Part shown: positions 4,839 to 13,365 of the stretch, piece by piece
How positions within the stretch are numbered: position 1 is the first letter of the stretch
How the letters are laid out: every line of letters begins with the position of its first letter
The notes under the pieces: generated by a model
What the model was told of the DNA's origin: nothing
Databases searched by the model: none
What the model saw: the letters and a program-made list of their open reading frames with translations, nothing else
Position numbers and translations under genes: made by a program
Assembly (NCBI GenBank): GCA_963761305.1
Contig: CAVXGK010000002.1
Span: 1,824,001-1,888,000, forward strand
Direction: 5' to 3'
DNA length: 64,000 nucleotides
From: an uncultured Gemmatimonadaceae bacterium
GTDB taxonomy: Bacteria; Gemmatimonadota; Gemmatimonadetes; Gemmatimonadales; Gemmatimonadaceae

Positions 4839-5378
4839 CTACCTGCCCAGCATTCTTCCCCGTAGGATCGCCAATCGCCGTCTGACCGACCCGTCCAACA
4901 CCGTATCTCCGACCCGGACCACCACCCCACCGAGCACATCCGGATTCACGTGGAAATGCGGAACCACCGTCTTGCCGAGTGCGCGGGACAGGTGCGACGT
5001 GACGAGCTCCCGATCCCGCTCATCCGCTTCCCGGGCGACCGTCACCGAGGCGTGGACCCGGCCCTCGACCTCGTCCACGAGGTCATGGTACTGGTGGGCA
5101 ATCGCCGGGATGAGCATCTGCCGGCGGTGATCCACCAGCGCCATCAGGAACCGCACGAATGTCCGCGGCAGTGACGCGCCGTAGGCCTTCAGGATGATGT
5201 CGTTTTTCTGCCGGCTGCTCACCCGCGGCGACTCCAGGAAAATCCGTAGGCGGCGGTCGGTCTCCACGGCGTTCGAGACGCTGTCGAACATCTCGCCCCA
5301 GCCGCGCAGGTCCCCGGCGCGCTGGGCCAGCTCGAGCAGCGCTTCGGCGTAGTTCCGAGCGATCGTCGTTTCGCGCAT
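4839..5378 (-). CDS. atpH: ATP synthase F1 subunit delta
   Basis: MRETTIARNYAEALLELA...LGGVVVRVGDTVLDGSVRRRL, OSCP/delta signature; follows atpF. Confidence 0.95.
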   Translation of the reverse strand: MRETTIARNYAEALLELAQRAGDLRGWGEMFDSVSNAVETDRRLRIFLESPRVSSRQKNDIILKAYGASLPRTFVRFLMALVDHRRQMLIPAIAHQYHDLVDEVEGRVHASVTVAREADERDRELVTSHLSRALGKTVVPHFHVNPDVLGGVVVRVGDTVLDGSVRRRLAILRGRMLGR

Positions 5379-5983
5379 CAGTTGCCGACCTTGACGGTCC
5401 CGATGGACGACAGGTAGGACTCGACGAGCTGGCGGTTCTTCGCCGACTCGAGGTTCTGCTCGATGACCTTGCTCGCGCCGGCCAGCGCGAGATCGACGGC
5501 TTCACGACGCAGTTGGGCGATCGCGCGGTCCTTCTCGCTCTCGATCTCCCGCCGAGCACGTTCCAGCATTTCCTGCTGTTCGCGACGCGTTTGCTCGAGC
5601 AAGTCGGCGCGCATCTTCTCGGCCACCGACCGTCCGTCGGCGATCAGTTTCTGCGCCTCGCCGCGCGCCGCGTCGATCTGCGCCTGATGCTCGGCGAGCA
5701 GCTTGGCGGCGGCTTCGCGGTCTGCCTTCGCGGCGTCGAGCGCCGCTTCGAGCGCCTTCTCGCGTGCCTCGACCGCGGCGGTGATCGGACCGAACGCGAA
5801 CCGTCTGAGGATGAAGAACAGGATCCCGAAGATGGCCAGCGTCCAGAACATCAAGTTCAGCTGGAGATTGACCAGTCCACCGCCGGCCGCGTGTGCGGCG
5901 GGCGCGCCTTCCTGAGCGAAGGCGGCTGTCGCCGTCGCCGCGTTGGCGACGAACAGAGTCATCGACCAAAAACGCATGCGCAT
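5378..5983 (-). CDS. atpF: ATP synthase Fo subunit b
   Basis: LMFWTLAIFGILFFILRRFAFGPI TM segment then charged coiled coil (...REIESEKDRAIAQLRREAVDLALAGASKVI); start uncertain (5983/5977/5992). Confidence 0.93.
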   Translation of the reverse strand: MRMRFWSMTLFVANAATATAAFAQEGAPAAHAAGGGLVNLQLNLMFWTLAIFGILFFILRRFAFGPITAAVEAREKALEAALDAAKADREAAAKLLAEHQAQIDAARGEAQKLIADGRSVAEKMRADLLEQTRREQQEMLERARREIESEKDRAIAQLRREAVDLALAGASKVIEQNLESAKNRQLVESYLSSIGTVKVGN

Positions 5984-6051
5984 GAGATTCATCTCGACTC
6001 GAATTGGATGGACTCGGCCGCCGCCCCCGGGGGCGGCAGCCGGTCGAAGCA

Positions 6052-6336
6052 CTAGAAGTACGTCTTGAGCTGGATCAACAAGCACACGACGACGCTGAAC
6101 AACGCGACGCCTTCGATGAGCGCGGAGAGAATCAGCGCGCCCGTCTGAATGGTGCCGGCGATTTCGGGCTGTCGCGCCATGCCTTCGGTCGCGCCAGCGC
6201 CGATTCGCCCGATTCCGATGCCAGCGCCGATCGCGGCCAGACCAGCGCCGACCCCGGCACCCAACATCGCCCAGGCACCCGTGTACGCCGGATTGAAGCC
6301 TCCAACGGCGGCCTGAAGCAGCGGCAGAATTGCCAT
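6052..6336 (-). CDS. atpE: ATP synthase Fo subunit c
   Basis: GAGLAAIGAGIGIGRIG, RQPE loop, ALIEGVALF ion-binding Glu. Confidence 0.95.
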   Translation of the reverse strand: MAILPLLQAAVGGFNPAYTGAWAMLGAGVGAGLAAIGAGIGIGRIGAGATEGMARQPEIAGTIQTGALILSALIEGVALFSVVVCLLIQLKTYF

Positions 6337-6519
6337 ATCAGTTCTCCAATCGAAACAGCGGTTCACATCCGTTGCTCCGCACCAACCGGCGAGCGATTCC
6401 GCCGACAAGTGCCGCCCGTCAACGAGCCCCGGGGCTCAACGGGCATCGCCAAGCATTCGCCTGGCTACTTCTGCGGCGGGTGAAGCGGATCCGCCACAGT
6501 CCTGCGTCGTCTGTTGTCG

Positions 6520-6552
6520 CGGTCGACCGGTCCACCGGTCTACCGGTCTACC
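6520..6552. repeat. Octamer REP-like repeat between atpB and atpE
   Basis: ggtcgaccggtccaccggtctaccggtctacc. Confidence 0.75.
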
Positions 6553-7505
6553 TAGTGATGTGCCGCCCGAATCTGCCCGATGAACACAGCCGCGAGCAGC
6601 GAGAAGATGAAGGCCTGGATGAACGCGACCAGGATCTCCAGGACCATGATGAACAGCGCCATCAGGAGCGCGAGCGGAGCGAGCGCGAACACGATCCACC
6701 CGGCCATCATGAAGATCAGTCCGATGAGCGCGAGAATGATCACGTGCCCGGCGATCATGTTCGCGAAGAGACGGATCGTCAGCGCGAACGGCTTGGTGAA
6801 CTTTCCGACGATTTCCACCGGCGTCATGATGATGGTCATCGCCTTCATCGCCGGATGCCCTTTCGGCCAATAAAAGATCGTCCCGAGGTAGGCGGGGCCC
6901 AGCGCCTTCATTCCGGCCGCCTCGATCACGACGAACGTGATGATGGCGAGCGTCGCCGTCACGGCGATGTTGCCGGTCGGCGTCGATCCGTAGGGGATCA
7001 ACCCGAACAGGTTGCAGACGAGAATGAAGAAGAAGAGCGTGAGCACGAACGGGACGTAGCGCTCGCCGCCGTGGCCACCCAGCACCGGGATGTAGATCTC
7101 GTTGCGGAGGTAGAGAACGACGGCCTCGAGTCCGGCCGCGAAGCCTTTCGGTCGCCCCTCGCGCTCCGTGCTTCGGACGTGAGAGCGCGCCGTCCAGATC
7201 AGGACGACGCAGAGCAGGAACGCCGCGAAGAGCATGAAGAAGATGTGCTTCGTGAGCCCCATGTCGAACGTGTGGCCGGCGATCGTCACGTTGTGCGTGG
7301 CGAACGTGTACTCGCAGGCCCACTCGCGGAGGTTCTTCACGCACGGGAACTCGATCGTCTTCGAGTCCGTGATGTGCGGCATGATGATGTCGGCGGGTCC
7401 GAGCTGCTTGGCCAGCGGACCGCCCGGTTCCTGCGCGGAGACGACGGCCGGCAGGACCAATGCGCCTGCCGCCAGCCATCCCAGGAGTCGCGAACGAAGA
7501 GTCAT
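6552..7505 (-). CDS. atpB: ATP synthase Fo subunit a
   Basis: KPFALTIRLFANMIAGH and LEILVAFIQAFIFSLL motifs. Confidence 0.96.
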   Translation of the reverse strand: MTLRSRLLGWLAAGALVLPAVVSAQEPGGPLAKQLGPADIIMPHITDSKTIEFPCVKNLREWACEYTFATHNVTIAGHTFDMGLTKHIFFMLFAAFLLCVVLIWTARSHVRSTEREGRPKGFAAGLEAVVLYLRNEIYIPVLGGHGGERYVPFVLTLFFFILVCNLFGLIPYGSTPTGNIAVTATLAIITFVVIEAAGMKALGPAYLGTIFYWPKGHPAMKAMTIIMTPVEIVGKFTKPFALTIRLFANMIAGHVIILALIGLIFMMAGWIVFALAPLALLMALFIMVLEILVAFIQAFIFSLLAAVFIGQIRAAHH

Positions 7506-7852
7506 GATCGAATCAGCAGTGGATCGAGCAATGATGACGCGAACAGTAGAGCAGCCAGCGAGACGAGCGCGGCGACGGGCGGCAGCTTGAACGCCAGCGC
7601 CACCAGCAGCGCGTACCCAATGAGTCCGATGAACCGCACCAGCGCGCCGGCTCCCATCCGGGCCAGGAGGCCGGCGAAGCTCACCGCGCGTCCGACGGCA
7701 AACGCGACGAGCTGAAGGACCACCGTCACCGCGGCGCTGATCCAGACCGCCGACCGGTCGCCCGGTCCCCGAAAGGCCAGGCTGAGGATTCCGGCTCCGA
7801 TGACGGCCACCGCCACGACGACCAGCCCGTGCCGCGCAAGTGCTTTGGTCAC
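7502..7852 (-). CDS. atpI: ATP synthase protein I-like membrane protein
   Basis: 116 aa, four hydrophobic helices, overlaps atpB start (ATGA) and atpZ stop. Confidence 0.65.
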   Translation of the reverse strand: MTKALARHGLVVVAVAVIGAGILSLAFRGPGDRSAVWISAAVTVVLQLVAFAVGRAVSFAGLLARMGAGALVRFIGLIGYALLVALAFKLPPVAALVSLAALLFASSLLDPLLIRS

Positions 7853-8946: not shown

Positions 8947-9089
8947 GAAGACTCTAAACACTGGCCGCGTTGCGCCGGACAGCTCGGGCCGCCCCTGCAA
9001 GGCGGCCCGTCTCGTCTCCGGCATTGGACCGCCGCACCGCACCGGTTAGGTTGTCCCGGACACCTCAATCGCGACAGGAGCCCTTCGGC

Positions 9090-10100
9090 GTGGCCACGCG
9101 ACAGCTTTCGGTGGATGACTCGCGCGACGTCGCGCTGCTCGAGCAGCTCGCCATCGCCCGATCTCGGCTGATCGAACAGATCGGCCGACGGATCATTGGC
9201 CAGCAGAAGATCGTCGACGATCTCGTCGCCGCGCTCCTCGCCGGCGGACACGTGCTGCTCGTCGGCGTCCCGGGTCTCGCCAAGACGCTGCTCGTCCAAA
9301 CCGTGGCCCAGGCGCTCGACCTCACGTTCTCGCGCGTGCAGTTCACGCCGGACCTGATGCCGAGCGACATCACCGGCACCGAGTTGCTCGAGGAAGATCA
9401 TACGTCGGGCGGCTCGCGGCGGTTCTTCAAGTTCGCCAAGGGTCCGATCTTCGGAAACGTCGTGCTCGCCGACGAGATCAATCGCGCACCGCCGAAGACG
9501 CAGGCCGCGTTGCTCCAGGCGATGCAAGAGCACGCCGTGACCGCGGCCGGCCAGACTCACCGGTTACCGGAGCCGTTCTTCGTCCTCGCGACGCAGAACC
9601 CGATCGAGCAGGAAGGCACGTATCCGCTTCCCGAAGCGCAGCTCGACCGATTCATGATGCAGCTCACGATCGGATATCCGAGTCGCGAAGAAGAGGAAAG
9701 AATCGTCGCCGCGACGACCGGCGACCTCGACGTCGAGATTCGTCCGGTACTCGACGCCGCGCAATTGCTCCAGCTCCAGCACCTCGTGCGCCGACTGCCG
9801 GCGCCGCCGTCGGTGGTGAGCTACGCGGTGAAGCTCGCGCGCTCGACACGTCCCGCCGCCGACGAGGCGACGCCGATGGTGAAGAAGTACGTCAGCTGGG
9901 GCGCCGGGCCGCGCGCGTCGCAATACCTCATACTCGGCGCGAAAGCTCGCGCGGCGATGGACGGCCGCGCGGTGCCGGATCTCGAGGATGTGAACGCGAT
10001 GGCCGTGCCGGTGCTCACCCACCGCGTCGTCGTGAATTTCCAGGCGGAGGCCGAGGGGATGTCACCCGAACGACTCGTGACCATCCCCTCGAAACCGTAG
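9090..10100 (+). CDS. MoxR family AAA+ ATPase
   Basis: [74 protein letters not shown] start inferred. Confidence 0.93.
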
Positions 10101-11108: not shown

Positions 11109-11230
11109 GCTGAGCTCTCCGTTCCGAGTGAGGGCGACGTTTTTCTTCGCGAGACCGCAAATCAATACGCGGCCTGACAATAGATTCCCAGTCCACCGCG
11201 CGGAAGGGTCGCCACAGTCCCGGCCGGAAG

Positions 11231-11995
11231 TCAGAACAGCCAGGGAATCAGCGCGCGCGTCGTACGTCGATAGTCCGCATACGCGTCTCCGAACAACTCG
11301 GCCAGGTTTCGCTCCTCGAGGCGGATTTTTCGGACGTACGCCGCTGCCATCAGTGCAGCGCCGAGGAACGCGTGCACGTCGCCAGAGACGAGCGCCGTGC
11401 CGACGACCATTCCGAGCATCGCCGAATAGATCGGGTGACGCACGAAACGATATGGCCCGGAGCGGACGAGTTCGTGGTCGGCCTTCTGCGTGATCGCGCC
11501 ACTCCAGTTCCGCCCCAAAACGCGCCGCGCCGCGATGGCGAACCCGAACGACGCCACATGTAGGGCCAGGCCCGCCACCACCCAGCCGGCCCCAACGGGA
11601 AGAACCCGCCCGTCCAGCCACGGAATCGGCACGAACAACAGGAGTAGCGACAGCAACATCAGCTTCTGATGGAACGCGCGTGACGGCGACGACTCACTTC
11701 GCACCGACGGGGCGGAATTCGCCGCTGCAACATTCCAATAAACCACGAACCCGATCCAGAGCAGCGCCGAAATGGTGAGCGGGGTCGCGAGGACCCGGAC
11801 GCGATAGTAAACAAGGAGAGCGACGATTCCAGCAAACAGAACCAATGTCACGACTTGCGCGGATCGTCCCGTGAGCCGGAGAGGGCCGATTACGAGCGCG
11901 GATGCTGGCGCCGACCCCGCGGACGCACTCAAAGGAGACGGACGCACGTCCGCTTCAGCCTGATCACTCTTCATCTCTTGGCCTCGCTCATTCAT
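11231..11995 (-). CDS. Isoprenylcysteine carboxylmethyltransferase (ICMT/PEMT) family membrane protein
   Basis: LGRNWSGAI..HELVRSGPYRFVRHPIYS, EERNLAELFGDAYADY; true start may be TTG at 11932 since the longer N-terminus runs into the 21-bp array. Confidence 0.88.
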   Translation of the reverse strand: MNERGQEMKSDQAEADVRPSPLSASAGSAPASALVIGPLRLTGRSAQVVTLVLFAGIVALLVYYRVRVLATPLTISALLWIGFVVYWNVAAANSAPSVRSESSPSRAFHQKLMLLSLLLLFVPIPWLDGRVLPVGAGWVVAGLALHVASFGFAIAARRVLGRNWSGAITQKADHELVRSGPYRFVRHPIYSAMLGMVVGTALVSGDVHAFLGAALMAAAYVRKIRLEERNLAELFGDAYADYRRTTRALIPWLF

Positions 11996-12816
11996 TGCAC
12001 GTCGTTCGACGCTGGCCAGTTGCCGGCAAACGACCGTTGCCCGTCAGCGACCCTTCATTCTCACTCGCTTCGCCCCAATCGGTCGCCGACTCTCGTGCAT
12101 TGGCCGGCGTCTTCCCTTCATTCGGTCTTGTCGCGCCTTCATTCACAGCTGTCGCGCTCGCATGCGGAGGACGCACGGAGGCGCTGATCCTTGACCACAT
12201 CACACTCCACCCCGTCGAACGCGCACTACCGTGCGGCCAGCGAGCATTTAACCACGTAAACCGGACATTCGAGACTTGCGAACGTCCATTCACCGCGGTG
12301 AATCGTACGTCCATTAGTCGCCAGGGTTCATCTCCCGGTATGCACGGCGCGTCTCACGGCTGCGATGCGACGCCAACCAATGTTTCGACGACGTCAAGGA
12401 TCCGTCAGCGGGCGTGTAGGCAGTTGCAGCGTCCGCCTACCAAGCGCGAGACGACACTCGCGCTCGGTCAAATCACATCAACGGATCGCGAGGCGACGTC
12501 TCGGCGCGTTTACCACACAGCAACGACTTGCCGAGCGACGCCTCCGGCTCGTCCATCTGCGCCAACGGATTGGTCGGCGGCGTCTCCGATTTACTATGAC
12601 CCGCAAACAAACAGCAGGACCAGTCCAAACGGAGTGGAACGGACACCGATGAGTCGTCAGCCAACGCCTACCGATTGAGAGCAAGCGTCTACCGGTTCTC
12701 ACGGCAATCCAACGAATCGGAACCACGCGTCTCGCTTTCAATAACCTATTTCAACCCGTCGAGAACGCTCCTCAAGGCGTCGGGAACGCTTCCCAACAAA
12801 CCAAGAACCCGCTCTA
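11935..12816. repeat. Degenerate 21-bp-period tandem array (~42 units)
   Basis: CATT/CATC at 11972, 11993, 12056, 12098, 12119, 12140, 12245, 12266, 12287 all in 21-bp phase; C at unit position 17 in 36 of 42 units by manual count; no phase shift. Confidence 0.8.
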
Positions 12817-12894
12817 GCCGACCCTAGCCGTGCGGCGTGGCGTACCCCGTAGACCCAAGGTCACCCTTGCGGATCGGCGCCCCCCCCGCCGATT

Positions 12895-13365
12895 ATGTCC
12901 ATGTCTCGCGCGAACTTGCACATCGCGACGATCCGGCCTGAGGATCATTCAATGGGTCTCCAGCAGCGCGCAGGATCATCCGCAAGCTCGTCTCCAGCGC
13001 TTCCGCCCGGCGTCGCCGCCGCCGCAGGCGACTATCAGCGACTTCGCGAGATCGAGAAAGGACACCTCGCGCTGATGGCGCGACATAACCTGCTCGCCGA
13101 CTGGACGCCGGAGATTCGCGAAACGGTGATGGAGGCGCGCAAGCACATTCACGACGCGAATGTGGCGCGCGAGAAATTTCGCGCTCTCGTGCGCGACATC
13201 GTCACGACACTGCGTGCCGAGCGCATGTCGCTCTCGGGCGTGTTGCGCCACACGCGATCGCTACTGCAAATCCTCGAATCGTCCGGCGCGATTCAGAACG
13301 ACGGCGGCTGGCTCGAGGCGGACGTGCTCGAGTGGGCGATCGAGGACTACGAGTCGGTTGCGTGA
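12895..13365 (+). CDS. Hypothetical alpha-helical protein
   Basis: GC3-biased ORF, YQRLREIEKGHLALMARHNLLADW...WLEADVLEWAIEDYESVA; start may be 12952. Confidence 0.7.
   Translation: MSMSRANLHIATIRPEDHSMGLQQRAGSSASSSPALPPGVAAAAGDYQRLREIEKGHLALMARHNLLADWTPEIRETVMEARKHIHDANVAREKFRALVRDIVTTLRAERMSLSGVLRHTRSLLQILESSGAIQNDGGWLEADVLEWAIEDYESVA

Follow-up and report, generated by a model that had tools for sequence, protein, structure and literature searches.

MITE/REPIN-type elements are non-autonomous, dispersed, multi-copy, sharp-ended and gene-less derivatives. Minisatellites/VNTRs are likewise known from bacteria, as are heptameric intergenic repeats, which are unexplained (PMC4692102). Type III toxin–antitoxin systems have 31–62-nt repeats in 1.9–5.6 copies (the toxIN range), a terminator before the gene and an endoribonuclease toxin (PMC3401426). 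TIGR-Tas arrays have 36-nt units with edge and loop repeats, an 18-nt period and a Nop-domain protein (PMC12045711), and VIPR arrays have a 5-nt period, a fixed trinucleotide and Vipr proteins (bioRxiv 10.64898/2026.10.21.760802). The period bands given in section 2.3 of the latter preprint lie at 60–79, 18 and 5 nt, with outliers at 10, 8 and 7 and none at 21 (bioRxiv 10.64898/2026.10.21.760802).

Here we analysed a window of 64,000 nucleotides (the whole stretch of DNA examined) from an uncultured Gemmatimonadaceae bacterium, the 5.2-Mb genome of which is denoted G000; other G-numbers denote relatives. Between two genes in this window lies an array of 21-bp units that is real, non-coding, lineage-specific and gene-less and that belongs to an apparently undescribed class. 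Even as an apparent orphan, the array exposes a large unannotated class of elements, with around 50 arrays in G000 and a partner protein family. A sequence-only reading of the window had picked out this locus as its best candidate for an undescribed system, and no description of a 21-bp cassette was found in the literature searched, coverage of which was incomplete (few subscription papers and no preprint supplements). Searches for DUF6261, Gemmatimonad 21-bp repeats and 21-bp minisatellites returned nothing relevant.

The 21-bp tracts resemble minisatellites/VNTRs and heptameric repeats in having intergenic tandem units, whole-unit changes in copy number, presence or absence between close relatives and a period that is a multiple of 7 (PMC4692102). 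Unlike the minisatellites/VNTRs described there, the array has units that are about 40% alike yet remain in phase over 39 copies, and the tracts share one period across unrelated units and are tied to one gene family. The resemblance to ToxIN, CptIN and TenpIN (PMC3401426) lies in a patchy distribution and in tandem repeats, themselves non-coding, that precede a small gene of the same orientation, whereas the cassettes described below carry 20–40 or more divergent 21-mers and a predicted all-helical protein. A type III system was rejected because 39 units of 21 nt that are about 40% alike are not a few near-identical 31–62-nt repeats; neither the neighbouring gene nor the cassette protein has a Pfam or NCBIfam match to ToxN, CptN or TenpN.

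Similarities to TIGR-Tas and VIPR arrays are short fixed motifs with variable bases, an exact period and one adjoining protein family; the differences are periods of 18/36 and 5 with conserved boxes in those systems, compared with a period of 21, drifting motifs and a different predicted fold here. TIGR-Tas was rejected on the period of 21, as period 18 gives no tracts in G000, and a VIPR array was rejected because identity at lag 5 modulo 21 is below the shuffle level (z −2.4). The array is not CRISPR-like, as had been stated, with no conserved repeat beyond 3–4 columns and no Rfam match. A diversity-generating retroelement was rejected on the basis of a flat mutational spectrum, the lack of a second array copy and a single reverse transcriptase that lies elsewhere in another context. 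The cassettes are similar to MITE/REPIN-type elements in being multi-copy and sharp-ended, with gene-less forms and, in several cassettes, a 5′ inverted-repeat module; they differ in that no Y1 transposase was found in G000, no target duplication was seen and the array itself has no inverted module.

The array and its site

The array (positions 11998..12816, + strand) consists of 39 head-to-tail units of fixed length, as in a minisatellite or VNTR, and is C-rich on the + strand. Identity at lags of 21, 42 and 63 nt is 0.40, 0.42 and 0.40, compared with 0.26 ± 0.015 (maximum 0.32) in 500 letter shuffles, and the proposed 21-bp periodicity was thus borne out by autocorrelation. Cutting from 11935, as the sequence-only reading had done, gives 42 21-mers, all distinct; a recount agrees that column 17 is C in 36 of them, and 33 read C-R-Y at columns 17–19. 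The reported drift of the consensus is real: columns 17–19 are CAT in 11 of 21 left units compared with 1 of 21 right units and CGY in 6 and 11 of 21, respectively, and unit ends within 11998..12816 (+ strand) pass from ...CATTC-like motifs on the left to ...CGTCT-like motifs on the right. Pairwise identity is around 0.40 for neighbours and declines to around 0.29 for units more than 24 apart. In a leave-one-out local profile, 34 of the 42 units fit best at offset 0; the 8 that are off phase are all weak, and four of these sit at half-unit offsets. The same profile shows that the periodicity ends after 12816. The array also has a 10/11-nt sub-period (z 5–6), but just 10 of the 50 tracts in the genome have this as their strongest sub-period, and general 10.5-bp phasing is unsupported across tracts. 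A sigma-70 promoter scan gave no candidates, and there was one weak terminator-like match, at chance level.

The left neighbour is an ICMT/PEMT-family methyltransferase gene (11231..11995, − strand; PF04191, E = 2e-13; PF04140, E = 1e-12) with 68–72% nucleotide identity to five relatives. Its start codon aligns with that of these relatives, so the first three of the 42 proposed units (11935..11997, − strand) are the 5′ end of the gene, and the non-coding array has 39 units, not 42. The local profile gives these three units phase scores of 1.1, 2.0 and 11.0. The start codon itself (11993–11995) falls at array columns 17–19, in phase with the conserved motif of the array. A second ATG, 21 nt into the gene, also falls on conserved array columns and is missing in relatives.

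To the right lies a small conserved hypothetical gene (12952..13365, + strand), which is not a cassette gene (no match to the A3 profile described below) and occurs in 28 of 61 genomes, all within the genus. The ORF caller starts it at 12895; 12952 is the likelier start, given indels in relatives between these positions. Upstream of it is a conserved, non-periodic spacer block (12850..12894, + strand; phase scores of −5 to −12); homology with the five relatives resumes at 12864 by blastn, with a weaker match from 12850. Farther away, the regions 4839–7852 and 8970–10100 hold what we take, from the translations, to be ATP synthase subunit genes, and a gene for a MoxR-type AAA_3 ATPase; this is an ordinary housekeeping setting.

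The same gene pair is present in five genomes, all five of which have a spacer of around 100 bp and no array; the array-free spacer is also seen in 3 of 3 metagenome contigs, which may duplicate these genomes. For the 22 remaining genomes, the 1.5 kb around the right-hand gene gives periodicity scores of at most 0.10, compared with 0.18 here. As G000 branches between the five relatives and more distant genomes, one gain on the G000 branch is the simplest reading; loss of the array in the ancestor of the five is an alternative that is not the simplest. The left part of the array (12016..12095, no strand assigned) is alignable with the array-free spacer of the relatives: the local score against the G005 spacer is 48, whereas 500 column shuffles reach at most 43.5 and 500 random windows of the genome at most 48. 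Two contigs that match the first part of the right-hand gene (12885–13100) at around 99% continue upstream into a spacer resembling the array-free form, and may represent a near-identical strain without the array.

Pieces of the array are matched at 98–100% by contigs from two soil studies, none of which spans the whole array and the best-matching datasets of which may include the source sample; these matches rule out an assembly artefact. Over 628 positions of the array (region 12189–12816), one soil contig has 11 differences (1.75%); the same strain differs at 6 of 433 positions in ICMT and at 1 of 324 in the gene to the right. The array differences are of mixed type, and there is one 1-bp insertion at 12491; unit number is unchanged over 12189–12816 in this one sister strain. 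The description 'indel-free' therefore holds for the G000 copy but not for the sister strain, nor for related leaders, which have 1-bp indels, and 'hypervariable' is apt between units but not between strains, for which divergence is an ordinary 1.75% or so. The suggestion of directed hypermutation finds no support, given this ordinary divergence and the similar number of alleles at each consensus base across 27 tracts (0.98 for A, 0.82 for C, 0.89 for G and 0.88 for T); no base is preferentially mutable, which argues against adenine-directed mutagenesis. The strain comparison thus indicates that the array is neither an artefact nor hypermutating, nor a gene.

Related tracts and the leader-plus-gene cassette

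By the same statistic, G000 contains 50 tracts with a 21-bp period, a few of the weakest of which overlap genes, and the array, which ranks 33rd among them, is not unique. Periods of 17–20, 22, 23, 25, 27 and 30 each give no tracts. Period 16, by contrast, yields 18 tracts in G000 and period 24 yields 9, which may point to 8-bp repeats as a class of their own. Most of the 50 tracts belong to dispersed families and are 0.5–2 kb in length; seven, including the array, have no blastn partner in G000. No gene accompanies 36 of the 50, and the remaining 14 adjoin a gene, or a remnant, of a family that we call A3. Three other solo arrays occupy spacers for which relatives have only a short sequence (4 of 5, 4 of 4 and 5 of 5 relatives, by coordinates); for a fourth, L095, the orthologous junction was not found in relatives. 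One such spacer (L090; G000 C2:3200032-3200599) lies between a stop codon and a terminator and holds a different 21-bp array in G024 (L102, C6 around 11140-12027); G005 and G015 have short 8-bp repeats there, whereas the spacers of G017 and G019 contain little. This could reflect a hot spot or complete turnover of units. Across four related genomes, array density follows the number of A3 genes: G002, with 0 genes, has 0 arrays in the 800 kb sampled, and there are 1 in 400 kb of G005 (7 genes), 4 in 400 kb of G028 (28 genes; arrays counted irrespective of cassette genes) and 3.9 per 400 kb in G000 (17 genes).

We call the unit formed by a 21-bp leader and an A3 gene a cassette. Sixteen copies in G000 have the period upstream in 14 cases and downstream in none. 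At loci from other genomes, a 21-bp tract is found upstream in 23 of 26 and downstream in 0 of 27 (score of more than 0.09, with a random-window 95th percentile of 0.078; two own-genome loci and any loci with too short a flank were left out). In a phylum sample, the tract is upstream in 23 of 27 loci and downstream in 2 of 26, and when 12 periods were compared, 21 scored highest at 24 of 27 loci. The A3 gene occurs in 26 of 61 relatives, with 0–28 matches per genome, many of which are fragmentary, and in 51 of 301 genomes of the phylum; named records with close A3 homologues are uncultured Gemmatimonadaceae.

In cassette family A (13 aligned copies), the ends are sharp and the flanks differ, the 5′ module is bounded by inverted repeats and there is a 3′ hairpin. 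The leader core changes in length by 21 or 42 nt, that is, by whole units, and its degenerate flanks are conserved; units within leader cores are near-identical. Leader substitutions by codon position are 0.22/0.20/0.22, compared with 0.06/0.04/0.21 in the gene; the rates are inflated by 3 of the 13 copies, which have a different leader, and indels were counted against one reference. The one leader family tested evolves as non-coding DNA. Phase-breaking indels of 1 bp do occur in leaders, and the ratio of indels to substitutions in family A leaders is 0.03–0.06, in part owing to assembly error.

The motif TAAGTAGRG occurs 20 times in G000 (17 copies within 700 bp of a listed tract and 3 at cassette genes), often in outward-facing inverted pairs that are 150–440 bp apart, and might mark the end of an element, a site of recombination or a promoter that can invert. 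Examples of such pairs are C2:679480/679922, C2:1101338/1101520 and C1:1083405/1083573. Near-identical cassette genes can carry unrelated leaders (L178, L183 and L185, compared with L176-L186), which suggests modular exchange of leaders. A search for mobilising functions revealed neither a transposase nor a target duplication nor a dedicated recombinase, and no Y1 transposase was found in G000; the two tyrosine recombinases of this genome lie away from listed tracts. The one reverse transcriptase match (L146, C1:819586-823248) lies between two IS3-like transposase pieces and, from its sequence, resembles the enzyme of a group II intron that sits within an IS.

Clustered at 50% identity, the A3 family comprises 4,544 representatives (E ≤ 0.001). 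Neither Pfam nor NCBIfam gave the cassette protein a significant match of its kind, and the listed matches include no recognised nuclease or Nop fold, Pfam giving no match. The predicted structure is all-helical with three long helices (pLDDT 93), a putative three-helix bundle. Foldseek returned no match to the model at E ≤ 0.001, and the best VIA Z score of 9.6 (r.m.s.d. 4.2; 175 aligned) is within the range common for helical bundles. In feature space, DUF6261 (PF19775) lies weakly near the cassette protein (0.88; 32% of the cluster) but has no match in G000 at E ≤ 1, nor in 30 family members searched against Pfam. The core of the protein is basic, with a median pI of 10.2 and a pI above 9 in 99% of 200 sequences, compared with 29% of 890 genome proteins.

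The array shares with the leaders a non-coding 21-bp period and a C-rich sense strand. When the genome is scanned with a profile derived from the array, the highest ranks go to other tracts. A 4-mer model, for which 49 leaders of other genomes served as training set, shows the + strand of the array to be leader-sense, with a score of 0.013 compared with −0.058 for the other strand and an intergenic 95th percentile of 0.011; 13 of the 14 leaders of G000 itself score ≥0.011. Alignments of the array with leaders L045 and L046 (scores of 55 and 62.5) fall below 70, the 95th percentile of a best-of-54-leaders null built from column-preserving shuffles (median, 52.75). Specific homology to these two leaders, which had looked good against random windows, does not pass this stricter null. 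An A-rich 3′ end as a leader signature was rejected, as it is not seen in leaders. No A3-family gene or remnant lies within 700 bp of the array at E < 1, and the TAAGTAG inverted module was not found at the locus. Taken together, these results link the array to the leaders as a class and not to descent from any one copy. Neither the profile scan nor blastn found a second copy of the array in G000, and a DNA search of 300 genomes of the family returned short matches in 73 (E ≤ 0.05; best, 8.6e-5 over 39 nt), which we treated as chance; this tally takes in one unpublished genome, G198, that supports no claim made here.

Phase retention and the origin of the array

Simulations, albeit with simple models of growth and decay, agree with the earlier view that the units hold their register more closely than neutral decay from an identical starting sequence would permit. 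A growth model of unit duplication and substitution, at a neighbour identity of 0.40–0.42, gives a lag-84 identity of around 0.29 and no long-range phase, even without indels; the observed figures are 0.41 and 0.42, together with an excess of 0.10, and this long-range phase was reached in 0 of 60 runs per matching setting. A star model, in which a burst of copying is followed by decay, fits only with 0.75–0.85 replacements per site and an indel-to-substitution ratio of around 0.01 or less (P = 0.08 at 0.01 and 0.003 at 0.03), whereas family A leaders have 0.03–0.06 and the strain pair 1 in 13. Fourfold sites differ from those of the array-free relatives at 0.30–0.33, a partly saturated value. 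From this deep decay, set against shallow fourfold divergence, and from the low indel ratio, we infer that the array arrived already degenerate and that its phase is under constraint.

We see an even chance that the array is an orphan, gene-less cassette leader on which a basic helical protein would bind one site per 21 bases. This reading draws on the roughly 50 tracts, the leader-plus-gene layout, the non-coding evolution of leaders, the occurrence of copies in different flanks and the basic protein. Such an array would have been degenerate, and would have lost its gene, before it arrived in the ICMT spacer. New units would arise by in-register slippage in the core, older units would decay outward, giving a drifting consensus, and phase-breaking indels would be purged by a protein that reads spacing and a loose motif and not a sequence. 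Twenty-one base pairs amount to two helical turns, and a repeat of fixed length and free sequence is what a phase-reading protein would select for. If phase is read in this way, the arrays could be relevant to a puzzle of bacterial intergenic DNA, the excess of repeats with a length that is a multiple of seven. More tentatively, and with clearly less confidence, the arrays and the basic three-helix protein might form a phylum-wide nucleoprotein system, with putative polymerisation in 21-nt steps on DNA or RNA, in which phase and not sequence would be read and which would drive the spread of cassettes and gene-less arrays.

Counting against an orphan leader are the missing gene remnant and inverted module, the lack of a family member by blastn, the leader alignments that stay within the column-shuffle null, the 36 tracts without a gene, the 1-bp indels in leaders and in the sister strain, and a 10.5-nt sub-period that is not general. 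In addition, the left 100 nt of the array retain similarity to the ancestral spacer, and the start codon of ICMT falls in register, as fits growth in place. The array would then be a minisatellite born where it lies, a 21-mer of the ICMT spacer having been expanded by slippage, with in-phase copying, which would also have overwritten the spacer and the 5′ end of the ICMT gene, keeping the register without a protein reader. The three other solo arrays in spacers that are empty in relatives point the same way, as do the different 21-bp array of G024 and the 8-bp repeats of G005 and G015 at one such spacer, and the absence of any visible target duplication. We nonetheless regard birth in place as unlikely. 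Plain slippage and mutation fail to produce the flat identity from lag 21 to lag 84, and they leave unexplained why the period is only ever 21, why tracts lie upstream of one gene family and why 800 kb of the gene-free G002 contains none.

The position of the arrays 5′ of a co-oriented gene for a basic protein, their short fixed motif with a variable remainder and their strand-specific composition would also suit transcripts that are cut into RNAs of 21-nt multiples and bind the basic protein as antitoxins or guides, as in type III toxin–antitoxin, TIGR or VIPR systems, the array being an orphan of this kind. We consider this improbable: the array has no Rfam match, folding z scores of just −2.35 and −0.99, and no blastn match in phage or plasmid collections, core units are near-identical and not spacer-like, and the cassette protein has no recognised nuclease or Nop fold among its listed matches.

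That the array is a decayed coiled-coil heptad gene, or that it and the leaders are N-terminal extensions of one, is very improbable. As the sequence-only reading had observed, the array lacks the GC3 bias of its neighbours (0.57–0.63, compared with 0.74 and 0.77 in the flanking genes). The codon score is negative and there are 2–11 stops in each of the six frames, and only 2–5 of the 13 strain differences are silent in any frame, so the array shows no open frame with codon bias and purifying selection. Several leaders read by eye as a/d heptads in one frame, and one + frame of the array is open for 258 codons (11902..12678, + strand), a length with P = 0.005 against column shuffles but P = 0.19 against dinucleotide shuffles. 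With a codon score of −0.30, no Pfam match, and a frameshift and a gained stop in the sister strain, it is a chance ORF and no gene. The 108-codon minus-strand frame that had suggested heptads (11988..12314, − strand; codon score, −0.18; GC3, 0.60; no Pfam match) is likely a by-product of the 21-bp period. Lags 9 and 12 are depleted in the array, period 3 is strongest in just 2 of 48 tracts, which argues against a coding origin, and neither the leaders nor the 13 strain differences show codon-position bias. A simple pseudogene of a conserved coiled-coil gene is likewise disfavoured, as no orthologous locus holds a gene at this site. Database family members with heptad N-terminal extensions (P0108, P0117, P0141, P0166 and P0167), of which P0108, P0141 and P0167 have in-frame extensions that would favour a heptad gene, look like leader read-through in whichever frame is open. 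The leaders are also a source of spurious heptad ORFs and of protein database entries with spurious N-terminal extensions.

Error-prone templated writing by a reverse transcriptase or directed hypermutation, in which units would be noisy copies of a slowly changing template, would give the star-like identity profile without net indels that is expected of independent noisy copies, but it is scarcely credible given the ordinary strain divergence, the flat allele spectrum by base in 27 tracts, the intron-like setting of the single reverse transcriptase and the degenerate leader flanks, which are inherited intact between genomes.
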